A stretch of 46,135 bases of DNA, taken from assembly GCA_964589215.1 (NCBI GenBank), contig CAZPUH010000758.1, positions 1-46,135 of the forward strand, written 5' to 3'. Shown here piece after piece: positions 2,462 to 46,135 of the stretch. Under the pieces are notes generated by a model. That model saw only the letters and a program-made list of their open reading frames with translations. It ran no database searches and was not told where the DNA came from. Position 1 is the stretch's first letter; each line of letters begins with the position of its first letter. The DNA comes from an uncultured Myxococcales bacterium (GTDB lineage: Bacteria > Myxococcota_A > Polyangia > Fen-1088). A program made the position numbers and the translations under genes.

Positions 2462-2890
2462 ATGGCACGACAACGAATTGGGGGCGTCTCGCTGGTAATT
2501 CTCGGCGTCTTGACCCTTGGAACGGGCGCCTACTTCTTGTTCGTCCGGCCGCCCCTTCTGCCCGAGGACGTGAGGTTCACCGGGGTAGATCCGAGACTCC
2601 TGGATCCTCGGATGATCACCTGGCTCGGAATTGTCTTTCGAACATGGGGAGGATTCATGGCCGGCTTCGGATTCCTCCTCGGCGCGGTCGGATGGTACTT
2701 GCTCTCAGCTCGCGAAGGCATCCTCCGGTGGGGAGCCAGCGCAGCCGTTCTGGTTGCGTTCGGTCGATTTCTATTGAGCAATCTGATCCTTCGTTCAGAC
2801 CATCTGCCCTTCATCTTCGCGATGTTTGCGCTCGCTGTCGTCGCCGCGCCGTTTCTACTCAGGCGAGGACCGCAGGGCCGAACCGACTGA
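2462..2890 (+). CDS. hypothetical integral membrane protein (about 4 TM segments)
   Basis: 142 aa with hydrophobic segments VSLVILGVLTLGTGAYFLF, WGGFMAGFGFLLGAVGWYLL, AAVLVAFGRFLLSNLIL and FIFAMFALAVVAAPFLL. Codon GC3 is visibly lower than in neighbouring genes. Confidence 0.55.
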   Translation: MARQRIGGVSLVILGVLTLGTGAYFLFVRPPLLPEDVRFTGVDPRLLDPRMITWLGIVFRTWGGFMAGFGFLLGAVGWYLLSAREGILRWGASAAVLVAFGRFLLSNLILRSDHLPFIFAMFALAVVAAPFLLRRGPQGRTD

Positions 2891-33775: not shown

Positions 33776-34395
33776 TCATGCCGCGGACGTACGAAAGAGG
33801 CAGTAGAGGAACTGCTGTCCGATGCCCCACGGCGTCCAGTGAATCTCGGTCGTCGCGTGGATCATCCGGAAGCCGGATCCGAGCTGCGCGGCAAGCATGT
33901 CGGCATCGTAGCAATCGACTTCGAGGCCGCTGCAATGCTCAGGCTCCTCAGGCCCGAACGTTGCCATGAGGACGTACCCGCCCGGCGTCACGGCGCGGCG
34001 CATAACCGCGACGTAGCGACACTTTTCGTCTTCCCCATGCAGAAAGTGAAAAACGGCGCGGTCGTGCCACAGGTCGAGTGAACCACTCTCGAACGACGCC
34101 TGGGTCACGTCAGCGGTCACCCAGCGAACCAGACGTTCGTTCGAGCCGAGGCGTGTCCTCGTGGCCTCCAGAGCGGCCGAGGAAACGTCGAGCACGGTCA
34201 CGTTCGTGAACCCACGCGCGAGTAAGTCGTCGACGAGCGTCGATGCTCCACCGCCAACCTCGATGATCGGAGCACGCTTGCTGAGTCCGACCTGATCTAT
34301 GAGTTGAAGGGACAACTCCAGATGGGGTCGATACCAGCTCAGCTGATCGGGAGCCTTGCGCTCGTAGACCGCCTCCCAGTGCTCTCTCACACTCA
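33776..34395 (-). CDS. class I SAM-dependent methyltransferase (start uncertain; the ORF extends to 34492)
   Basis: Motif I IIEVGGGASTLVDDLL, post-I VTVLDVS, HWEAVYE...LSWY N-terminus. A GTG at 34395 or 34389 is preferred because the upstream extension is R-rich low-complexity sequence. Confidence 0.7.
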
Positions 34396-34540
34396 CTTGT
34401 TTCGATGTACTTAGGCAGGCGGAAGCGATCAAGCGGGTACCTCCCACCCCAGAGCAGCGGCGCATCCGCGCGGGACGAGCCAGACGGGCCACCCCGACTC
34501 GATCCCGCGCTCTATCGGACGCTGGCAGCGGCCGCCCGAC

Positions 34541-34912
34541 TTACTTGCCCTGGAGCTCTTTTGCTCGCATCTCATGATAATCGGCGGCTTTCGTGGCATC
34601 CGCCGCGAGCTTGTCGGCGTCCTTGGCGATCTCGGAACAATGCTTCTGCATTTTCGCCAACTTAGGATCCTTCTCTCCTTGCGCTGTCGAGTGAGAGTTC
34701 AACCCCGCTTGCTTTGCCGCCTCGGCCATCGCCCGATGTTCGTCGGCCACCTTCTTGTATTGTGCGGCTTCGTCTCGGTACTGCTTGGCCAGCGCCTCAT
34801 GCTCCGCGACAGTCGTCGGAACCGTCGACGCGGCTTTCGAGACCGTCGCCGTGAGTGCGACTACCGCGAATAGGACACCCAAAATCGTCGCTCGGCGTGT
34901 CGTGACCATCAT
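34541..34912 (-). CDS. secreted His/Met-rich helical protein, paralog 1 (uncharacterised family)
   Basis: 123 aa. RBS GAAGGAGAG, signal ILGVLFAVVALTATVSKA. It shares KKVADEHRAMA and KMQKHC..IA.DADKLAAD..KAADYHEMRAKEL.GK with the next gene. Confidence 0.75.
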   Translation of the reverse strand: MMVTTRRATILGVLFAVVALTATVSKAASTVPTTVAEHEALAKQYRDEAAQYKKVADEHRAMAEAAKQAGLNSHSTAQGEKDPKLAKMQKHCSEIAKDADKLAADATKAADYHEMRAKELQGK

Positions 34913-35014
34913 CGTCTCTCCTTCGGTTGAGTGATTACTGCCTTCTTCTCTTACGATTTACGTTCGATGTGATTTCCGCCGCGTTTCAGGCCGGTTCGAT
35001 CCCGAGTCAGGAAC

Positions 35015-35035
35015 CTGTGACCTGCGGAGTCACAG
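35015..35035 (-). terminator. 7-bp perfect inverted repeat (CTGTGAC-N7-GTCACAG) just after paralog 2
   Basis: Read directly. It lies 15 nt past the stop of 35050-35421, but no clear U-tract follows on the minus strand. Confidence 0.3.
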
Positions 35036-35049
35036 ATGCGTCTCGATGG

Positions 35050-35421
35050 CTACTTCCCTTCGAGCTCCTTGGCTCGCATCTCGTGATAGTCGGCCGCCTT
35101 TTGGTAGTCGGCGGCCAGCTTGTCGGCGTCGCGCGCGATCGCCATGCAGTGCTTCTGCATCTTCTCGTTCCAGGGATTCTTCATCCCGCCTTTCATGTCC
35201 GGGTGTGCCTTGCCGTACTCGGCTGCCATAGCCCGGTGCTCGTCCGCGACCTTCTTCGCGTCCGTCGCCTTGTCCTTGTAGGCCTTGGCACGCTCCTGTT
35301 GCCCGGCCGCCGTTGTTGCCGGCTGATCCGGCTCGCCTGCGTACGACGCCGTCGCGGTCAGTGCGAATGCTCCAAAAGCGATCGTCGCCAGAATGATTCG
35401 GGCCTTCCGTGCGAGCTTCAT
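35050..35421 (-). CDS. secreted His/Met-rich helical protein, paralog 2 (uncharacterised family)
   Basis: 123 aa from the ATG preceded by GAGGAGAG. Signal IILATIAFGAFALTATASYA. Conserved blocks are shared with paralog 1, plus HPDMKGGMKNPWNEKM. Confidence 0.75.
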   Translation of the reverse strand: MKLARKARIILATIAFGAFALTATASYAGEPDQPATTAAGQQERAKAYKDKATDAKKVADEHRAMAAEYGKAHPDMKGGMKNPWNEKMQKHCMAIARDADKLAADYQKAADYHEMRAKELEGK

Positions 35422-35480
35422 CACTTCTCTCCTCTTGCCATCGAACTGTCGTGGGGTGCCCGGCGCGACCATCGCTCCGG

Positions 35481-35497
35481 ATACGGAACGGGGGTAT
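35481..35497. promoter_or_regulatory. candidate CsoR-family operator: ATAC-N9-GTAT containing a G5 tract
   Basis: ATACGGAACGGGGGTAT, read directly, about 60 nt upstream of the paralog 2 start. It is embedded in a GGAACG...CGTTCC inverted repeat. Confidence 0.3.
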
Positions 35498-35757
35498 GCA
35501 GTAGCCGTTCCAACCGCTCGTGCGCGAGGGGACAGCGCTCGGATTCACCTACGAGCTGCGACTGACGCTCGCCCGCAGGGCGACGGGCTGTGACCGGCGC
35601 GGGCACAGTCAGCGGCAGTTCATGCGCGACTCTCGAATCTCCGCGCACGATTTACGAGGTCGATCGATGCCGCCGCCTGCAAGTTGTGAGGCACGTGGCT
35701 TGCGTTCATCCGCGTACCTAACCCTGGTAGTCCCCCCGCGAGCTAAGGCGGTGTACC

Positions 35758-36033
35758 GTGAATGCACGCGACAAGGCTGACGTCAGCGCCAGGCTGAAAC
35801 GAATTGCCGGACAGATCGCCGGTATCCATCGGATGCTGGACGAGGATCGGTCGCTGCTCGACGTCCTCACTCAGTTGAGCGCCGCTCGCGCCGCGATCGC
35901 GAGCGCGTCACATATCGTTCTCGCCTCCCACGTCGAGGAGCGAGCGACCGAAGCTCTTGAGAGTCCGAGCGTCCGAGAACGTCGCGAGCTCGTGACCGAG
36001 ATCGTGCGCCTCCTGGAGAAGCGAGACCTGTGA
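35758..36033 (+). CDS. CsoR/RcnR/FrmR-family (DUF156) transcriptional repressor, cysteine-free variant
   Basis: 91 aa with a GTG start after AAGGCGG. The family pattern is RLKRIAGQIAGIHRMLDEDRSLLDVLTQLSAARAAIASASHIVLASHVEE. There is no Cys anywhere in the protein. Confidence 0.8.
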   Translation: MNARDKADVSARLKRIAGQIAGIHRMLDEDRSLLDVLTQLSAARAAIASASHIVLASHVEERATEALESPSVRERRELVTEIVRLLEKRDL

Positions 36034-36071: not shown

Positions 36072-36107
36072 CTTCTAGAAGCGATGGTGTAACTGCCGAA
36101 GTTACAC
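36072..36107. promoter_or_regulatory. two adjacent perfect palindromes upstream of cusC: CTTCTAGAAG and GTGTAACT-N5-AGTTACAC
   Basis: Read directly at 36072-36081 and 36087-36107. This is a locally AT-richer stretch in the csoR-like/cusC intergenic region. Confidence 0.3.
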
Positions 36108-36196
36108 GGAGCCCTTTACTCGGGCGAACCGCATTGTTTGCGCGAGCCCCTCGTTCGGGCGCCCGACTGGCGCGCAAGTTGCTCCATGAGAAAACG

Positions 36197-37477
36197 ATGA
36201 CGCTCGCTCTCCGCCGCTTGCTGCTGGTGCTCGCGTTGCCGGTCATGGCAGCGCCCGCGTGGGCGCATGCCCAGGCTTCCACGAGCCTGCAGCCGCTGGT
36301 CGACGAGGCGCTCCACCGCCAGCCCGCGATACGCGTGGCGGAGCGCATGGCGGATGCGGCAGCGGACGCCGTGTCGCGCGAAGGGGCGCTTCCCGATCCA
36401 ATGGTGTCGGTCGGGGCCGTGAACCTTCGCGTGGACAGCCCCCGTCTCAACTCTGACTCGATGAGCGGGATCGCGCTCATGGCCACGCAGGACTTTCCGT
36501 TCCCAGGGAAGCTGGGACGCCGAGGTGCCGTCGCGAGCGCGAACGCCGACGCGGCCAGGACCGACGCACGGGTGGCGGCGGTTGGTATCGCCCTACGCGT
36601 GCGGCAGGCGTACTGGCGTCTCCATTATGCCGAGGAGGCGGAGCGGATCACGGGCGAAGGGGTCGCCATTCTCGATCATTTGCTCGAGATCTCACGGGCG
36701 CGCTTCTCGGTTGGCCAGGCGGCCCAACAGGACGTGCTGTCGGCCGAGGTCGCCAAGAGTCGTGCCCTTGCGATGCTGGAAGAGCGTAAGCAGATGATCG
36801 TGACGGCACGGCGCGAGCTCAACGGCGCCATCGGACGGCCACCCGAGAGTACCCTTGGACCGACAGAGGCCCCGCCCGACCAAGTGGCGCTGGATCGCCC
36901 CGCGCTGCTCGGCGCGGCATCGCGCGCCAGCCCCGACGTGCTCGCGGCGCTCGCGCGGATGACGGCCGCCGCGCGCGCCGTGGACGAGGCCTCGTACGAC
37001 CGGTGGCCGGACCTGCAGGTCGTCGGCGGCTACATGATCCGGGCTGTGGTGCCCGGCGATTCGTCGAGCGGAAGCGACATGTTCAGCGTCAGCGTCGGTG
37101 TCACGCTGCCCCTTTGGATCGCGCGCAAGCAGAACGCGCGTCTCCGCGAGACTCGGCAGAACCTGTCCGCGGCCCAGGCGAACGTGGAGGCGGCGTCTCT
37201 GAACACAGCTACCGCGGAACAGAGCACTCTTGACGTCGTCGAGCGGCTCACCCGCGAGATCGCTCTCTTCGAAGCCGAGGTGGCACCGAACGCGGAGCGG
37301 TCGGTCGCCAGCGGCACCGCCGAGTATCAGGTCGGAAAGACGGCGTTCGTCGCGTTGCTGGCCAGCTGGCAAGCCCTCCTCGACGCCCAGATCGATATTG
37401 CGAGGCTCCGTTCGGAGAGGGCGCAAGCCGTCGCCGAGGCCCGTGCACTGTCGGGCGCGCCGGACGCCGGCCCATGA
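36197..37477 (+). CDS. cusC: TolC-family outer membrane efflux protein (CusC-like)
   Basis: Signal MTLALRRLLLVLALPVMAAPAWAHA. It has OMF repeat architecture and is the first gene of the OMF-MFP-RND triplet. Confidence 0.85.
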   Translation: MTLALRRLLLVLALPVMAAPAWAHAQASTSLQPLVDEALHRQPAIRVAERMADAAADAVSREGALPDPMVSVGAVNLRVDSPRLNSDSMSGIALMATQDFPFPGKLGRRGAVASANADAARTDARVAAVGIALRVRQAYWRLHYAEEAERITGEGVAILDHLLEISRARFSVGQAAQQDVLSAEVAKSRALAMLEERKQMIVTARRELNGAIGRPPESTLGPTEAPPDQVALDRPALLGAASRASPDVLAALARMTAAARAVDEASYDRWPDLQVVGGYMIRAVVPGDSSSGSDMFSVSVGVTLPLWIARKQNARLRETRQNLSAAQANVEAASLNTATAEQSTLDVVERLTREIALFEAEVAPNAERSVASGTAEYQVGKTAFVALLASWQALLDAQIDIARLRSERAQAVAEARALSGAPDAGP

Positions 37478-37502
37478 GCCCCGAGCGACGGAGTGAAGGA
37501 CC

Positions 37503-38903
37503 ATGACGACCATGACAAAGACGAACAGCAACTCTTTCTCGGACTTGCTCACCTGGGGCCGGGGCCACCGGGCAGGTGCGGCCTTGCTGGTCGGGCTGCT
37601 CACTGCCGCGGGGATTCTGATAGGGATCGTCGGGACGCGCGTCTTCTTCGCCACGGCGACGCACACGGCCGCGAGCGTGACGACGGAGAAGCCGGCATCC
37701 TCTGCCTTGGCCACCCCAGAGACGGAGGCCTCGCCCAAGGCCGTCGTGCGGGTTCGCATCACGCCCGAGCGCCAGCAGCTCATCGGGGTTCGAACGGCGG
37801 TGGTCGGCACGGTGGCGCCGGAGAGCACGATCCGCACCGTCGGCGTGCTCGCGTATGACGAGAGGAGGGTGGCCGAGATCCACGCCAAAGTGGCGGGCTG
37901 GGTCGAGAAGGTCAACGTCGACTATGTCGGCAAGGCGGTCCGTAAGAACGAGCCTCTGCTGTCGATCTACAGCCCGGACCTGGTTGCCGCCCAGCTTGAC
38001 TACCTGGTCGCGATCAAGACCGGCGCCAAGTCAGCTGACTCGGCATCTTCCCTGCACCGTCTCGATCACTCGCTCGTCGATGCCAGCCGCACACGTCTCA
38101 AGCTGCTCGATATGACGGACGCCCAGATTGCGACGCTCGAGCGCACGCAGCAAGCCGCGAAGACGGTCACGCTGTACTCGCCCTTTTCGGGCGTGGTCGT
38201 CGAGCGCAAGGCATTCGCGGGCCAGTACATCCCGCCCGACATGGCCACCGTCAAGATCGCCGACCTCTCGACAATCTGGGCTATCGGCCAGGTCTACGAG
38301 TACGAGCTCGGCAAGGTTCGTGTCGGCCAGGACGCAGATGTCCAGTTTCCGTACGGCGAGACCAAGCCCGTCAAAGGGCGCGTGAGCTTCGTCTACCCGG
38401 ATATCGATCCCCACACGCGCACGGCCCGGGTGCGGGTGGAGTTCCGTAACCCTGGCGTCAAGTTCAAGCCCGAGTCGTTCGTGACGATCGTCCTTCATAC
38501 GGCCGGCACGTCACAGCTAGCCGTCCCGCGAGAGGCCGTCATCGATACGGGGGCGCGGCAGTACGTGTTGATGTCGCTGCCTGACGGGTTCTTCGAGCCC
38601 CGCGACGTCAACGTCGGGGAAACCCAGGGGGACGTCATCCCGGTGTTCACCGGCCTGCGCGTGGGCGAGCGCGTCGTCACCTCAGCCCAATTCTTGATCG
38701 ACTCCGAGACCAACCTGCAAGCGGCGATGCAGTCGATGTCCGCGACGATGCCGGGGATGAAGATGGAGGGCCAAGGCGCCGGCGACATGAAGGGGATGGA
38801 CACGAAAGGGGGCGGTCACGAGAAGGCCGGCGGCGGTGCGCAGGAAGACATGAAGGGGATGGACATGCCCTCGCAGCCGCCACCGGCATCGGAGCGGCGA
38901 TGA
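37503..38903 (+). CDS. cusB: RND periplasmic adaptor (CusB-like) with a Met/Gly-rich C-terminal tail
   Basis: HlyD-type motifs (IHAKVAGWVEKVNVDYVGKAVRKNEPLLSIYSPDL, VTLYSPFSGVVVER). The tail is MQSMSATMPGMKMEGQGAGDMKGMDTKGGGHEKAGGGAQEDMKGMDMP. ATGA overlap with cusA. Confidence 0.85.
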   Translation: MTTMTKTNSNSFSDLLTWGRGHRAGAALLVGLLTAAGILIGIVGTRVFFATATHTAASVTTEKPASSALATPETEASPKAVVRVRITPERQQLIGVRTAVVGTVAPESTIRTVGVLAYDERRVAEIHAKVAGWVEKVNVDYVGKAVRKNEPLLSIYSPDLVAAQLDYLVAIKTGAKSADSASSLHRLDHSLVDASRTRLKLLDMTDAQIATLERTQQAAKTVTLYSPFSGVVVERKAFAGQYIPPDMATVKIADLSTIWAIGQVYEYELGKVRVGQDADVQFPYGETKPVKGRVSFVYPDIDPHTRTARVRVEFRNPGVKFKPESFVTIVLHTAGTSQLAVPREAVIDTGARQYVLMSLPDGFFEPRDVNVGETQGDVIPVFTGLRVGERVVTSAQFLIDSETNLQAAMQSMSATMPGMKMEGQGAGDMKGMDTKGGGHEKAGGGAQEDMKGMDMPSQPPPASERR

Positions 38904-41900
38904 TCAAGAAGCTGATCGCGTTCTCGGCGCGCAACCCGTTCGTGGTCGTCCTGATGATGGTGATCATCCTGGGCGCCGGCGTGTGGGCCATCCGGCACAC
39001 GCCCATCGACGCGATCCCCGATCTTTCGGATGTCCAGGTCATCGTAACGACGAACTGGGAGGGCCGCAGCCCGACTCTCGTTGAGGACCAGGTCACTTAC
39101 CCGATCGTCACCGCGCTCCTCTCGGCGCCGCGCGTGAAGGTGGTCCGTGGCTTCTCGTACTTCGACATCTCTTTCGTCTACGTCATCTTCGAGGACGGCA
39201 CCGATCAGTACTGGGCGCGATCGCGGGTGCTCGAGTACCTGAATGGCCTCCAGGGCAGGCTCCCTCCGAACGCGCAACCGGTGCTCGGCCCGGACGCGAC
39301 CGGGGTTGGCTGGGGCTTCGAGTACGCCCTCGTGGACAAGACCGGGAAGCACGACCTCGCGGAGCTTCGGACGCTCAACGATTGGTACGTGCGCTACTGG
39401 CTGCGGTCCATCACCGGGGTCGCCGACGTGGCACCGGTGGGTGGCTTCGTGAAGCAGTACCAGATCGAGGTCGATCCCAACGCGCTCCTCGCCTTCAACG
39501 TCCCGATCGACCGAGTGGTCGCCTCGGTCCGCAAGAGCAACAACGACGTGGGCGGGCGCGTCGTCGAATGGACCGGTCACGAGTACATGGTGCGTGGCGA
39601 GGGCTATCTGAAGAGCGTCGCCGACATAGAGCAGATTGGGCTCGGGGCCAAGCCCGACGGAACGCCCATCTTGGTGAGGAATGTGGCCCGCGTCCACCTC
39701 GGTCCGGAGATGCGCCGGGGCGTCTCAGAGCTGAATGGCGACGGGGACGCCGCCGGCGGGATCGTCGTCATCCGCTCCGGCGTCGACACCTATGGCGTCC
39801 TTGCGGCGATCAAGAAGGCGATCGCCGACAAGATCCAGCCGTCACTGCCAGAGGGAGTGAAGCTGGTCACGACCTACGACCGGTCCGAGCTCATCGAACG
39901 ATCGATCGAGACGCTGAAGTCCAAGCTGATCGAGGAGATGGCGATCGTGTCGCTCGTCTGCGTCGTCTTCCTGTGGCACTTCCGGAGCGCCCTCGTGGCG
40001 ATCCTGACTTTGCCGCTCTCGATCCTGCTCGCGTTCGTGGCGATGCGGTTCGTGGGGCTCGGCTCGAACATCATGAGCCTGGGCGGAATCGCGATCGCCA
40101 TAGGAGCCATGATCGACGCCGCGATCATCATGATCGAGAACGCCCACAAACACATCGAACACGAGCAGGCGGCCGATGGGAAGTCCCGGCGAGAAATTCT
40201 GATCGAGGCGGCGCAAGAGGTCGGGCGCCCACTCTTCTTCTCATTGTTGATCATCACGGTGTCCTTCCTCCCGATATTCACGCTCGAAGCGCAGGAAGGG
40301 CGCCTCTTTCGGCCGCTGGCGTTCACCAAGACCTTCTCCATGGGCTTCGCCGCGCTGACGTCGGTCCTCATCGTCCCGTTTCTGATGGTCCTTTTCATCC
40401 GCGGCCGCATCACGCGCGAGGACAGAAACCCCATCAACCGACTGCTCATCTGGGCCTATCACCCATTCGTGAAGCTCGTTCTGCGGCATCGGGCGCTGAC
40501 GCTCCTGGCAGCCGCGCTGCTCCTCGCTAGCACCGGGCCGATCATCATGAAGCTCGGCTCCGAATTCATGCCGCCACTCTACGAGGGGACGCTCCTCTAC
40601 ATGCCGCTGACCCTGCCGGGCGCGTCGGTACAGACGGCGCAGCAGATCCTTGCGCTGCAAGACAAGCTCATCGGAGAGGTTCCCGAGGTGCAGTCGGTGT
40701 TCGGCAAGGCGGGCCGCGCCGAGACGGCCACGGACCCCGCGCCTCTCGAGATGATCGAGACGGTCATCAACCTCAAGCCCGAGACGGCTTGGCGCCCTGG
40801 GATGACGCCCGACAAGGTAATCGCCGAGCTCGACAAGCGCGTTCGCGTGCCCGGGGTGGCGAACGCCTGGACGATGCCGATCAAGGCGCGGGTCGACATG
40901 CTATCTACCGGGATCAGAACACCCGTCGGCATCAAGATCTTCGGCCCGACGTTGGAGAAGATCAACGACATCGGAGCGCAGATTGAAGGAGCGCTCGGGG
41001 CGGTGCGCGGTACGCGGAACGTCTTCTCGGAGCGTGTCACGGGCGGCTACTACGTCGACTTCAAGGTCAAGCGCGACCAGATAGCGCGATACGGCCTTAC
41101 GGTCGAGGACGTCGAGATGGTGATCGAGTCGGCGATCGGGGGCGCGAACGTCACGACCACGATCGAGGGACGGGAGCGCTACCCGGTCAACGTCCGTTAT
41201 CAACGGACTTACCGCACCGACGTCGGTGCGCTCAAGCGGACGCTCATCGCAGCGGGTGACGGAACGCAGATCCCGCTGGAGCAGGTCGCCGACATCAGCG
41301 TGAGCACGGGCCCGACCGTCATCCGGACAGAGCAGGCGCAACTGCTCGGCTACGTCTACGTCGACGTCGCCGACCGAGACATCGGGGGCTACGTGACGGA
41401 TGCCAAGGAGGTCGTCGCGCGGATGGTGAAGCTTCCGCCGGGCTACACGCTCGAGTGGAGCGGCCAGTACGAGTACATGCAGCGCGCGAAGGAGCGCCTC
41501 AAGGTCGTCATCCCGATCACGCTTCTGGCGGTCATCGTCCTCCTCTACTTCAACACCCGCAACGTGACCAAGATCTGCATCGTCCTCCTCGCGGTGCCGT
41601 TCTCGCTAGTGGGCGCGTTCTGGGTCGTTTACCTGCTCGGCTACAACCTCTCCGTTGCGGTCTGGGTCGGGTTCATCGCGCTCGCCGGGGTCGACGCGGA
41701 GACGGGGGTGGTGATGCTGCTCTACCTCGACGCCGCTTACGACAGGGCGAAGGCGGAAGGGCGAATGAACACCCTGAGTGACCTCCAGCTCGCCGTGGAG
41801 GACGGTGCGGTCAAGCGGATCCGGCCGAAGATGATGACGGTGATGGCGATCTTGATGGGTCTCCTCCCGATCATGTGGAGCCGTGGCGCGGGCGCAGACG

Positions 41901-42052
41901 TCATGAAGCGGATCGCGGCGCCCATGGTGGGGGGGGTCGTGACCTCCTTCATCCTGGAGCTGCTCATCTACCCGGTGATCTTCACGATCTGGAAGAAGCG
42001 CGAGGTGCTCGCGCGGCGCGACACGCCTCGGCTTCTGGGAGAAGATCGATGA
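38900..42052 (+). CDS. cusA: Cu(I)/Ag(I) efflux RND transporter, CusA type
   Basis: 1050 aa. The TM4 motif GGIAIAIGAMIDAAIIMIENAH is CusA-type. The methionine-triad contexts LLYMPLT, PLEMIETVINLKP and RVDMLSTGIRTPVGIKI parallel E. coli CusA M573/M623/M672. Confidence 0.9.
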   Translation: MIKKLIAFSARNPFVVVLMMVIILGAGVWAIRHTPIDAIPDLSDVQVIVTTNWEGRSPTLVEDQVTYPIVTALLSAPRVKVVRGFSYFDISFVYVIFEDGTDQYWARSRVLEYLNGLQGRLPPNAQPVLGPDATGVGWGFEYALVDKTGKHDLAELRTLNDWYVRYWLRSITGVADVAPVGGFVKQYQIEVDPNALLAFNVPIDRVVASVRKSNNDVGGRVVEWTGHEYMVRGEGYLKSVADIEQIGLGAKPDGTPILVRNVARVHLGPEMRRGVSELNGDGDAAGGIVVIRSGVDTYGVLAAIKKAIADKIQPSLPEGVKLVTTYDRSELIERSIETLKSKLIEEMAIVSLVCVVFLWHFRSALVAILTLPLSILLAFVAMRFVGLGSNIMSLGGIAIAIGAMIDAAIIMIENAHKHIEHEQAADGKSRREILIEAAQEVGRPLFFSLLIITVSFLPIFTLEAQEGRLFRPLAFTKTFSMGFAALTSVLIVPFLMVLFIRGRITREDRNPINRLLIWAYHPFVKLVLRHRALTLLAAALLLASTGPIIMKLGSEFMPPLYEGTLLYMPLTLPGASVQTAQQILALQDKLIGEVPEVQSVFGKAGRAETATDPAPLEMIETVINLKPETAWRPGMTPDKVIAELDKRVRVPGVANAWTMPIKARVDMLSTGIRTPVGIKIFGPTLEKINDIGAQIEGALGAVRGTRNVFSERVTGGYYVDFKVKRDQIARYGLTVEDVEMVIESAIGGANVTTTIEGRERYPVNVRYQRTYRTDVGALKRTLIAAGDGTQIPLEQVADISVSTGPTVIRTEQAQLLGYVYVDVADRDIGGYVTDAKEVVARMVKLPPGYTLEWSGQYEYMQRAKERLKVVIPITLLAVIVLLYFNTRNVTKICIVLLAVPFSLVGAFWVVYLLGYNLSVAVWVGFIALAGVDAETGVVMLLYLDAAYDRAKAEGRMNTLSDLQLAVEDGAVKRIRPKMMTVMAILMGLLPIMWSRGAGADVMKRIAAPMVGGVVTSFILELLIYPVIFTIWKKREVLARRDTPRLLGEDR

Positions 42053-42066
42053 GCACGCGCGCCGGC

Positions 42067-44390
<2,324 letters not shown>

Positions 44391-44394
<4 letters not shown>

Positions 44395-44669
44395 CCGAGC
44401 GGCGACCCGACAGTGAGCTGCACAAGGCCGTAGAACGCCGGCGGACCCGGCGCGAGAAGTGGAACCGCGAAGGCGAGCGCCCCCTGGGGCGCAACCTCGC
44501 TCTGGTCGGGCTCGGCTGGCTGATCGTGGTCCCGGCCCTCCTGGGGGCTCTCATCGGTCACATCATCGACGCGCATGCGGCGACCGGCGTCGCATTTACG
44601 TTCGCGCTCATTGTCGCGGGCCTGGGGCTCGGATCGTGGCTGGCCTGGACCCACGTGAGGCGGTCGTGA
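44391..44669 (+). CDS. atpQ: AtpQ (AtpI/AtpZ-like small membrane subunit of N-ATPase)
   Basis: 92 aa. Charged N-terminus, then two TM helices (LALVGLGWLIVVPALLGALIG; FTFALIVAGLGLGSWLAW). The position after atpC is diagnostic of N-ATPase operons. Confidence 0.7.
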
Positions 44670-44941
44670 CTCACGCGATCGTTATCGTGCCAGTGTTCGT
44701 TGGCTTCGGGCTTGTCCTCGGCGTCGCGCACTTCGGCTCGCTCGCCAGTGAGGTTCGGCGGTATGTGCGTGGGGGGGCGCGCGCCCACATCGTTGCCCTG
44801 CATGTCGCGCGAATGCTGGCCCTGGCCGGTGTCTGGGTGCTCATCGCCAGGTTCGGCCGCGCGCCCGGCCTACTCGCGGCATTCGTCGGTTTCCTCGTCG
44901 CTCGCCGGGTGGTCGTCGCGCGCGGGAACAGGGCGCTGTGA
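44666..44941 (+). CDS. atpR: AtpR (N-ATPase-specific membrane subunit)
   Basis: 91 aa. GTG start overlapping the atpQ stop (GTGA). Three hydrophobic helices with Arg residues (VARMLALAGVWVLIARFG), positioned between atpQ and atpB. Confidence 0.65.
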   Translation: MTHAIVIVPVFVGFGLVLGVAHFGSLASEVRRYVRGGARAHIVALHVARMLALAGVWVLIARFGRAPGLLAAFVGFLVARRVVVARGNRAL

Positions 44942-45615
44942 ACCCCCAGTCCTCCCCGCTCCAGACCGAGGTCCTGTTTCGCATCGGCGCGATCCCGGTC
45001 GCGCGTCCGGTCGTCACCACATCGGTCATCGTTCTCGTGCTGGGCGTCGGGAGCTGGGCGAGCACCCGTCGCTTGCGCCCCGTGCCCGGCCGCTGGCAGG
45101 CGGTGTTGGAAGCGGTCGTCACCTGGGTGGCCGACCAGATCAGCGAGATCGTGCGCCGGGACCCGGCGCCGTTCCTACCGTTGCTTGGCACGCTGTTCTT
45201 GTTCATCGCGGCCGCGAACCTCTCCGCGGTGCTCCCGGGGGTCAAGTCGCCCACCGCGAGCATCGAAACGCCCGCGGCCCTCGCCATCGTCGTTTTCTTG
45301 TCTACGCACATCTACGGCATCTGGCAGCAGGGTGCGCGGCGCTATTTCGGCGCGTTCCTCAAGCCCAACCCGCTCCTGCTCCCCCTCAATATCGTCGCCG
45401 AGATCACCCGCACCTTCTCCCTGATGGTGCGCCTGTTCGGAAACATGATGAGTCACGAACTGGTGGTTGGCATCGTCGCCAGCATCGCCGGGCTCCTCGT
45501 GCCGATCCCGTTCCTCGCGCTGGGCATCCTCGTCGGGCTCATCCAGGCCTACATCTTCTCGATCCTCGCAACCGTGTTCATCGGCGCCGCTGTTGGCGCC
45601 GTGGAGAAAGGATAG
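44938..45615 (+). CDS. atpB: ATPase a subunit
   Basis: 225 aa. The conserved stator Arg region is ITRTFSLMVRLFGNMMSHELV and the C-terminal helix is LIQAYIFSILATVFIG. Confidence 0.88.
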   Translation: MNPQSSPLQTEVLFRIGAIPVARPVVTTSVIVLVLGVGSWASTRRLRPVPGRWQAVLEAVVTWVADQISEIVRRDPAPFLPLLGTLFLFIAAANLSAVLPGVKSPTASIETPAALAIVVFLSTHIYGIWQQGARRYFGAFLKPNPLLLPLNIVAEITRTFSLMVRLFGNMMSHELVVGIVASIAGLLVPIPFLALGILVGLIQAYIFSILATVFIGAAVGAVEKG

Positions 45616-45617
45616 TC

Positions 45618-45887
45618 ATGGACGTCAAGGCACTGAGCGTGATTTGTTCGACCGCCGCCGTCTCGGTGGGCGCCGTCGCCCCGGCGCTGGCAGAGGGAAA
45701 GGCCATCGTGGCAGCGCTGGAGGCGATCGCCCGCCAGCCCGAGTCGCAAGGGCCGCTCTCCCGAACGCTGTTCGTCGGCCTGGCCATGATCGAGTCGATG
45801 GCCATTTACAGCTTCGTGGTATCGATGATCCTGCTGTTCGCCAACCCCTTCTGGAACCACGTCATCGCACCGCTCGCCGGGAAGTAA
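45618..45887 (+). CDS. atpE: ATPase c subunit
   Basis: 89 aa hairpin with loop ARQPE and helix-2 carboxylate motif LAMIESMAIYSFV. Confidence 0.88.
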   Translation: MDVKALSVICSTAAVSVGAVAPALAEGKAIVAALEAIARQPESQGPLSRTLFVGLAMIESMAIYSFVVSMILLFANPFWNHVIAPLAGK

Positions 45888-45890
45888 GCC

Positions 45891-46135
45891 GTGCTCATCG
45901 ACTGGTTCACCGTCGCCGCCCAGATCGTCAATTTCCTGCTCCTGGTGTGGTTGTTGCAACGCTTCCTCTACAAGCCGGTACTGGCGGCCATCGATGCCCG
46001 CGAGAAGCGGATCGCCGAGCAGCTGACGCGCGCGACCGAGCGTGAAACACAGGCGCAACAGGAGCGCGACCGCTATCACGGCCGCAACGAAGAAATCGAG
46101 TCACAAAAAGAAGGCCTTCTGCGAGCGGCGGCCGA
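45891..46135 (+). CDS. atpF: ATPase b subunit (5' partial, runs off the window)
   Basis: GTG start 3 nt after the atpE stop. N-terminal TM segment WFTVAAQIVNFLLLVWLLQRFLYKPV, then a charged helix AIDAREKRIAEQL. Confidence 0.75.
   Translation, partial: MLIDWFTVAAQIVNFLLLVWLLQRFLYKPVLAAIDAREKRIAEQLTRATERETQAQQERDRYHGRNEEIESQKEGLLRAAA

Follow-up and report, generated by a model that had tools for sequence, protein, structure and literature searches.

What do two small paralogous proteins, assigned to no recognised family, do beside an operon for metal efflux? The question is raised by contig CAZPUH010000758.1 of an uncultured Myxococcales bacterium, whose 46,135 nt were analysed as a whole (hereafter the window; coordinates follow its numbering). 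Two tandem genes of the window, par1 and par2, lie divergent from a CsoR/RcnR-family gene that is followed by a cusCBA-type operon, and an earlier interpretation made from the DNA alone (hereafter the sequence-only reading) saw in their products secreted, all-helical proteins with soft-metal ligands. The two proteins are members of a new, widespread and unannotated family, and we are confident in predicting that each chain forms an antiparallel two-helix hairpin. Both are good candidates for periplasmic Cu/Ag-binding proteins of a new kind. The specific explanation that we favour, and to which we would give an even chance, is that the hairpin proteins are inducible periplasmic Cu(I)/Ag(I) binders, co-regulated with a CusCBA system lacking CusF and acting as a metal buffer or as a donor to CusB/CusA. 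The strongest new evidence is the architecture of the control region, as read from aligned sequences. The two genes are as follows.

34541-34912, minus strand: hairpin paralogue 1 (par1), 123 aa
35050-35421, minus strand: hairpin paralogue 2 (par2), 123 aa

Two genes of a widespread hairpin family

Open reading frames for both paralogues were found exactly where the sequence-only reading had placed them, and their products are 52% identical (BLASTP, E value 3e-34). The long identical blocks to which it had drawn attention (KKVADEHRAMA, KMQKHC, DADKLAAD and KAADYHEMRAKEL) are all present in both proteins, as is a single Cys, in a KHC context in each. The signal peptides and strong ribosome-binding sites it had described were likewise recovered: both N-termini display a basic n-region, a hydrophobic stretch and an AxA-like site (ASYA/GE and VSKA/AS, the slash marking the cut), and a GGAGAG-type site precedes the ATG of both genes. 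Sec export to the periplasm, as suggested by these N-terminal sequences, is supported by the AlphaFold model, in which residues 2-27 form a detached N-terminal helix of lower confidence; the mature form of each paralogue would then be about 95 aa long. A longer par2 open reading frame, starting at 35472 and with no ribosome-binding site, was rejected because homologues all begin at the MKLA... position.

With par2 as query, 244 homologues were detected at E≤0.01 among 90%-identity clusters, nearly all of them "hypothetical proteins" of 120-124 aa from soil and rhizosphere metagenomes. When 1.84 billion representatives were searched with a profile, the family grew to 389 clusters at 50% identity (E≤1e-3; 111 of them at E≤1e-10), mostly from soil Myxococcota metagenomes. 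Given these homologues and clusters, and a GC content that is far higher at third than at second codon positions, both paralogue genes are real. Close relatives in species-representative genomes occupy 12 loci, nine of which belong to metagenome-assembled genomes (MAGs) of Myxococcota (Myxococcales, Polyangiales, Polyangia), the remaining three being from Steroidobacteraceae, Blastocatellia and an unclassified Pseudomonadota MAG. No match was found by tblastn in 72,556 plasmids.

Searches of Pfam and NCBIfam returned only noise, both for par1 and par2 (E≤10) and for 60 diverse family members (E≤0.01). Profile searches against PDB sequences, with a close and with a broad alignment, yielded nothing significant; designed coiled coils, the ATP synthase b subunit and PIIN_05872 were listed at E≥3e-4, and these matches are compositional. 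None of the homologues or cluster members carries a name, and literature searches on CsoR with sigma-54 and on myxobacterial copper systems found nothing that describes the family. The earlier statement that the proteins cannot be assigned to CusF, CopC, CopK, CopM, Csp or CpxP/Spy therefore stands, as the sensitive profile searches (Pfam, NCBIfam, PDB) and the Foldseek comparisons reported below assigned them to no known family.

To examine conservation, 112 representatives no more than 50% identical to one another and spanning both helices were compared (residues are given in par2 numbering). The best-conserved side chains family-wide proved to be H41 (91%), Y48 (96%), H62 (92%) and M65 (88%) in helix 1, with M88 (75%), H91 (87%), C92 (85%) and H113 (93%) in helix 2, so that the His, Met and Cys positions singled out by the sequence-only reading are indeed conserved. 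Stripes of Ala at 45/52/59 in helix 1 and 99/103/110 in helix 2 are conserved as well. All of the signature residues are retained by par1, which resembles the second copy of tandem loci elsewhere, while par2 retains H62, M65, M88, H91, C92 and H113 and has Gln at the conserved H41 position. Where the sequence-only reading took the loop of paralogue 2 for an addition, the comparison says the reverse: the par2 loop HPDMKGGMKNPWNEKM has the family-typical form (HPDxKGGxKNPWNxKM) and the divergent loop is that of par1.

An AlphaFold2 model built from a 116-sequence alignment has a mean predicted local distance difference test score (pLDDT) of 86.7, with values of 95-99 along both helices, and consists of a signal helix, a helix at 38-72, a ten-residue loop and a helix at 83-120. 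The all-helical part of the earlier prediction of a helical bundle is thus borne out by a confident model; a single chain is predicted to be a two-helix hairpin, and a bundle would need dimerisation. Along helix 1 the heptad series 41-48-55-62-69 reads H-Y-Y-H-Y, with M65 one turn further, and helix 2 has C-A-A-H-L in the series 92-99-106-113-120 and carries M88 and H91 on that face as well. The His/Cys/Met/Tyr set falls on the same 3-4 heptad stripes as the conserved Ala/Leu core, and the conserved residues would face the helix-helix interface. Given this heptad phase, and an antiparallel hairpin with the middle of its loop near residue 77, residue i is expected to lie opposite residue ~155-i, which would set H62/M65 against M88/H91/C92, Tyr against Ala, and H41 against H113. 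A putative His2-Cys-Met(2) cluster would consequently lie at the loop end and a His-His pair, H41/H113, at the open end; the latter putative pair is complete in par1 and lost in par2. H62-x-x-M65 and M88-x-x-H91 are HxxM and MxxH motifs, one each per protein, and it is through such helical motifs that SilE binds Ag(I) (PMC5008109).

In 12 other loci the gene occurs in tandem, two or three times over, and the signature is retained in both copies. Natural fusions of two hairpins in one chain, with linkers of 4-6 residues, were also found (P0002 of 212 aa, P0124, P0147 and P0149; P- and L-numbers are labels of family proteins and related loci), and the family profile matches P0223 (382 aa) in five stretches. 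Because of the tandem copies and the fused two-domain proteins, a pair of hairpins is a plausible working unit. The fused P0002 was predicted as four long helices with short turns (pLDDT 85.7; predicted template modelling score, pTM, 0.55). Foldseek searches of the PDB with the monomer and with the fused two-domain model gave no match at E≤0.001, all E values being above 0.08: the monomer retrieved only generic hairpins (EsxA/WXG100, PIIN_05872; E about 0.4-4) and the fused model weakly matched designed bundles, including designed haem-binding ones. When the profiles of helix 1 and helix 2 are compared, H41 falls on C92 and H62 on H113, each pair being 21 residues apart; the match is marginal (hhalign, P = 0.002, probability 5%) and only suggestive of an internal duplication relating the two helices.

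The closest structural resemblance is to the WXG100 proteins EsxA and EsxB, which also consist of two antiparallel helices of ~35 residues (template modelling score up to 0.8 when normalised to the target, not significant) and are also often encoded by tandem gene pairs. WXG100 hairpins pair into four-helix bundles. The hairpin proteins, however, produced only sub-threshold WXG100_2 matches (E 0.006-1.3), have no WXG motif and carry the loop HPDxKGGxKNPW. WXG100 proteins have no conserved His/Cys/Met set and are substrates of type VII secretion, whereas the hairpin proteins bear a predicted Sec signal peptide and their hosts are diderm soil bacteria.

A shared control region and a cysteine-less regulator

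Relatives of the locus were gathered from 79 loci (L001-L079), of which 59 were usable and non-redundant and 30 were non-redundant and at least 3 kb long. The intergenic region between the csoR-like gene and the hairpin gene was aligned across 14 loci whose proteins are 45-70% identical, and its architecture proved to be conserved. The following elements were recognised in the window in and near this region.

35017-35033: perfect palindrome GTGACCTGCGGAGTCAC, between par2 and par1
35482-35496, minus strand: TAC-N9-GTA box 1, TACCCCCGTTCCGTA, abutting the -12 element
35497-35512, minus strand: sigma-54-type promoter TGGAACGGCTACTGCA, -24 GG/-12 GC, reading into par2
35590-35606: imperfect palindrome GTGACCGGCGCGGGCAC, GTRAC-N7-GTYAC with one mismatch, midway between the divergent promoters
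35690-35703, plus strand: sigma-54-type promoter GGCACGTGGCTTGC, reading into the csoR-like gene
35715-35729: TAC-N9-GTA box 2, TACCAGGGTTAGGTA (minus-strand sequence), 12 nt past the csoR-side -12 element
36089-36105: perfect palindrome GTAACTGCCGAAGTTAC, between the csoR-like gene and the outer-membrane factor gene, with the same placement in related loci

The hairpin-side promoter has canonical spacing (pattern TTGGAACG-N4-CTGCAT) and is the only exact match to TGGMACGNNNNYTGCR within the window. The same motif was found upstream of the hairpin gene in 19 of the 59 usable loci, against ~0.1 expected, and eight of these 19 have no adjacent csoR. The two TAC-N9-GTA boxes are the sole matches to TACCNNNGTTNNGTA in the 46 kb and are similarly placed in related loci. 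CsoR operators are recognised by a G/C tract set within a TAC-N9-GTA inverted repeat (PMC3902906), and boxes 1 and 2, which display this pattern, are candidate CsoR-type operators. Literature searches did not turn up a sigma-54 promoter gated by a CsoR-family operator.

The central palindrome, of which those at 35017-35033 and 36089-36105 are perfect copies, is separated from the two -24 elements by about 86 and 92 bp. It recurs at gene junctions, and related loci contain about 30 non-redundant copies of GTRAC-N7-GTYAC in 462 kb, where about one was expected; they are usually placed 150-170 bp ahead of the hairpin start, and some adjoin genes for multicopper oxidases and ATPases. Judging from this distribution, the palindrome is probably the site of a regulator or enhancer-binding protein and defines a regulon. 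The perfect palindrome at 35017-35033 is a candidate regulator site or RNA hairpin. A separate sigma-54 promoter for par1 was also sought; the only candidate was a poor GG-N10-GC match 14-30 nt from the palindrome, and it was not accepted.

The product of the divergent gene matches PF02583 with 75.8 bits (cut-off 22.8) and contains no cysteine at all, having L, H and R at positions X, Y and Z in place of the C, H and C of Cu(I)-sensing CsoR. The Cys-less pattern is shared by 11 of 13 non-redundant hairpin-linked orthologues (orthologue loci include L001, L004, L018, L019, L029, L031, L044, L051 and L067), one of the other two having C-H-C and one C-H-S. All known sensors of the CsoR/RcnR family use a Cys at position X (PMC5016687). 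Since the sensory cysteines are missing, the regulator is unlikely to be a canonical Cu(I) sensor.

The layout of the control region resembles that of zraP-zraSR, in which ZraR drives divergent sigma-54 promoters with activator sites between them, one promoter expressing the periplasmic zinc-binding helical chaperone ZraP (PMC4987338); divergent sigma-54-type promoters and a central palindrome are recognised by sequence here too. The hairpins might accordingly be envelope-stress chaperones of the ZraP/CpxP/Spy kind, with metal as a cofactor or signal and with feedback on the sensor kinase of a sigma-54 activator, rather than carriers of metal to the pump; NtrC-type sigma-54 activator genes occur in eight related loci, and ZraP, CpxP, Spy and CnrX are periplasmic, metal-binding helical hairpins, the fold predicted for par1 and par2. 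We consider this explanation unlikely. The weak NCBIfam ZraP match (E 0.015) reaches 15.6 bits where the cut-off is 200 and overlaps the signal peptide in part, no LTXXQ or Metal_resist match was obtained in Pfam among the 60 members searched, and the structures of ZraP, Spy, CpxP and CnrX are absent from the PDB profile and Foldseek lists, leaving no significant sequence or fold match. No kinase/activator pair lies beside the hairpin genes in the window, the divergent partner being instead the csoR-like gene with cusCBA, and the Cys and Met of the putative ligand set point to a soft metal rather than to Zn.

Copper genes, other partners and the surrounding island

The neighbours named by the sequence-only reading (a methyltransferase, a CsoR-family gene and cusCBA) were confirmed by domain matches. 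These genes, and those at the start of the window, are as follows.

33776-34492, minus strand: S-adenosylmethionine (SAM)-dependent methyltransferase, 48 nt downstream of par1
35758-36033, plus strand: CsoR/RcnR-family (PF02583) gene, divergent from par2
36134-42052, plus strand: cusCBA-type operon
36134-37477, plus strand: outer-membrane factor (OEP)
37503-38903, plus strand: CusB-like adaptor
38900-42052, plus strand: CusA-type resistance-nodulation-division (RND) pump
65-140: tRNA-Asp
250-1410: tyrosine-recombinase integrase, after tRNA-Asp

The pump matches TIGR00914 with 1143 bits (cut-off 701), carries the motif AIGAMIDAAIIMIEN in transmembrane segment 4 and has Met in LYMP, LEMIE and DMLSTG contexts, positions which we take, by comparison with E. 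coli CusA, to be the CusA transmembrane-segment-4 motif and three-Met metal site. By these sequence criteria the pump is of genuine CusA type. No CusF domain was found among the small open reading frames scanned in the window, nor in L001 or L004. The C-terminal ~60 aa of the CusB-like adaptor form a Met/Gly/Lys-rich tail (MPGMKMEG...DMKGMD...DMKGMDM), where a periplasmic donor could plausibly dock or deliver its metal. Directly after cusA, at 42389-46135, comes an ATP synthase cluster with the beta subunit first, as also in a related Myxococcales MAG (L001, 1-364), a gene order reminiscent of N-type ATPase operons.

Related loci were annotated by tblastn with the window proteins, clustering of predicted neighbours and Pfam scans of cluster representatives. 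Beyond the window, 13 of the 59 usable loci have a CsoR-family gene upstream of the hairpin gene and divergent from it. At least one of RND/membrane fusion protein/OEP genes (mostly Cus-like), a multicopper oxidase, a P1B ATPase, DUF4396 or a csoR-like gene is present in 19 of the 30 longer loci, and an ATP-binding cassette (ABC) ATPase with a YHS domain lies beside the hairpin gene of one further locus. The adjacency to csoR and cus genes whose conservation the sequence-only reading proposed to check therefore recurs in independent loci together with conserved regulatory DNA, but the csoR link itself is limited to those 13. On contig WNGA01000050.1, hairpin genes occur at two loci ~18 kb apart (L051 and L066), one with csoR, the ATPase and cusCBA and the other with DUF4396, a multicopper oxidase and a P1B ATPase.

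Other partners are not specific to metals. The commonest neighbour, found in 16 loci (L023, 2868-5450; L004, 4844-7255; L007, L018, L019, L051 and others), is a P2-type P-ATPase with Cation_ATPase_N/C domains and a PEEFP motif instead of PEGL, not a heavy-metal P1B enzyme, and its gene often separates the csoR-like gene from the efflux genes. In about a dozen loci (L004, 8405-9751; L005, L011, L015, L022, L030, L032, L034, L035, L051, L061 and L078), the gene that immediately follows the hairpin gene, apparently in the same operon, encodes a PaaK-like adenylate-forming enzyme of ~450 aa, whose best match is TIGR02304, "F390 synthetase-related" (135 bits, below the cut-off). This position is occupied in the window by the SAM methyltransferase rather than by the PaaK-like ligase; the methyltransferase may be co-transcribed with par1, and its pairing with hairpin genes is not conserved in related loci.

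The 40 kb beyond the integrase encode three RND systems, a cation diffusion facilitator (CDF) transporter, two multicopper oxidases, a YHS/HMBD P1B ATPase, an HMBD lipoprotein and two extracytoplasmic function (ECF) sigma factors, and the window looks like an integrated metal-resistance island flanked by tRNA-Asp and the integrase. A small predicted membrane protein with no Pfam match (2462-2890, plus strand), marked by the motif LGVLTLGTG..F.FVRP..LPEDV, recurs in metal islands (L011, 687-1517; L019, L063 and L078).

Such an island invites the explanation that the hairpins are periplasmic structural or adaptor proteins with no direct metal role, that their His, Tyr and Cys serve folding, pH sensing or an intermolecular disulfide, and that they reached this place by hitch-hiking. 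Metal genes are missing from many loci, the partners that recur most (PaaK-like ligase, P2-type ATPase and AAA_28) are not metal-specific, and the predicted fold is a generic WXG100-like hairpin. We nevertheless judge this quite unlikely, since the promoter-operator module is common to the hairpin genes and the cus operon and is kept across loci whose proteins are only 45-70% identical, the conserved positions are classical soft-metal ligands predicted to pair across the hairpin, and an enrichment in copper genes of 19 in 30 across different gene orders is high for hitch-hiking.

Blue copper sites and b562-type haem sites use His, Met and Cys ligands of the sort conserved here. That the hairpins are cofactor redox proteins, either binding haem b as a pair, with His/Met or bis-His axial ligands like those of cytochrome b562, or shuttling electrons through a type-1-like His2-Cys-Met copper centre, for instance to multicopper oxidases, is nonetheless very improbable: the conserved core-facing His, Met, Cys and Tyr include both of these ligand sets, multicopper oxidase and c-type cytochrome-like genes recur nearby, one distant member follows a respiratory cluster resembling alternative complex III (ACIII) and designed haem-binding bundles are among the weak Foldseek matches, but no Cytochrom_B562 or other haem-family match was obtained, no Foldseek E value falls to 0.08, the best-conserved context is co-regulation with an efflux pump rather than with a respiratory chain, and tight pairing with oxidases is not conserved.

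A candidate periplasmic copper/silver binder

Small periplasmic proteins that handle metal alongside a copper resistance system are a known kind; by family-profile and sequence criteria, the hairpin proteins do not group with CusF, SilE/PcoE, ZraP/CpxP/Spy/CnrX, Csp, CopM or cytochrome b562. Like SilE and PcoE, they are small, apparently exported, encoded with a Cus/Sil-type RND pump and endowed with His and Met spaced i,i+3 on helices, but no sequence similarity or Pfam/NCBIfam family match to them was detected. SilE has many repeated motifs and no Cys, whereas the hairpins have one motif per helix and an invariant Cys and Tyr; metal-free SilE is disordered, whereas the hairpins are predicted to be folded, with helix pLDDT values that argue against disorder while describing a model and not a measured apo state. 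The role proposed for them is that of CusF, a small periplasmic protein co-expressed with CusCBA. CusF, however, has a His-Met-Met(-Trp) site on a small beta-barrel, the hairpin model is all-alpha, PF11604 was not matched by par1 or par2 (E≤10) or by the 60 members (E≤0.01), and the hairpin genes are divergent from the pump rather than inside its operon.

Csp1, Csp3 and CopM are, for their part, helical bundles that hold Cu(I) on side chains directed into the bundle or along it, Csp1 and CopM being periplasmic or exported. Csp proteins have four-helix cores with at least 13 Cys, unlike the single Cys and two helices of each hairpin chain, CopM is a DUF305 protein and the hairpins have no DUF305 match, and neither Csp nor CopM appeared in the PDB profile searches. 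The cytochrome b562 family, a four-helix bundle with Met/His haem ligands, gave no Pfam or PDB sequence match.

For the explanation that we favour, inducible Cu(I)/Ag(I) binding in the periplasm, we infer a series of steps that comprise export, dimerisation, metal binding, the identity of the metal, hand-over to Cus and the proteins acting at the DNA elements. Each exported protein would fold as an antiparallel hairpin and most likely form a four-helix unit, either as a homodimer or together with its paralogue, in which His62/Met65 facing Met88/His91/Cys92 would make up the His2-Cys-Met(2) site and His41/His113 a second pair at the open end. The hairpins would take up Cu(I)/Ag(I), serving as a metal buffer or handing it to the neighbouring CusB/CusA, and their expression would be coupled to that of the pump by the shared control region. 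There, the divergent sigma-54 promoters are presumably activated by an NtrC-type enhancer-binding protein at GTGAC-N7-GTCAC palindromes, and each TAC-N9-GTA operator would gate one promoter for the adjacent cysteine-less CsoR-family repressor.

Several points weigh against this explanation. The ligand geometry depends on heptad phase and a predicted model, and a lone Cys in the oxidising periplasm could form an intermolecular disulfide instead. The fused model reaches a pTM of only 0.55 and found no compact four-helix structural match. The partner regulator is devoid of the Cys needed for Cu(I) sensing, and 46 of the 59 usable loci have no adjacent csoR-like gene. Several long loci (L009, L010, L016 and L020) show no metal genes, distant members, whose context comes mostly from short contigs, adjoin an ACIII-like respiratory cluster or MerR, and the P2-type ATPase and the cytosolic PaaK-like ligase are partners that a copper chaperone role does not explain.

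A bolder version, to which we attach little probability, would make the hairpins a new all-alpha class of copper proteins with a His2-Cys-Met(2) centre (the blue-copper ligand set) carried on two antiparallel helices. They would donate Cu(I)/Ag(I) to CusB/CusA without CusF and be under an unprecedented dual control by a sigma-54 activator and a Cys-less CsoR-family repressor that senses something other than Cu(I)-thiolate chemistry.

How copper and silver get to efflux pumps, or escape them, depends on small periplasmic metal-binding proteins, and the known ones (CusF, CopC, CopK, SilE/PcoE and CopM) cover only part of bacterial diversity. The hairpin family, with hundreds of clusters, no annotation or solved structure and a simple predicted fold, offers a soluble protein of ~95 residues whose clear ligand set makes it directly testable. 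The control region is of separate interest for metal sensing, combining as it seems to do sigma-54 promoters, CsoR-type operators and a Cys-less CsoR-family protein. If the hairpins do bind Cu(I)/Ag(I), they would bring a new fold into periplasmic copper trafficking, offer an explanation for the feeding of Cus systems without CusF and provide an annotation handle for thousands of "hypothetical proteins" in metal-resistance islands.

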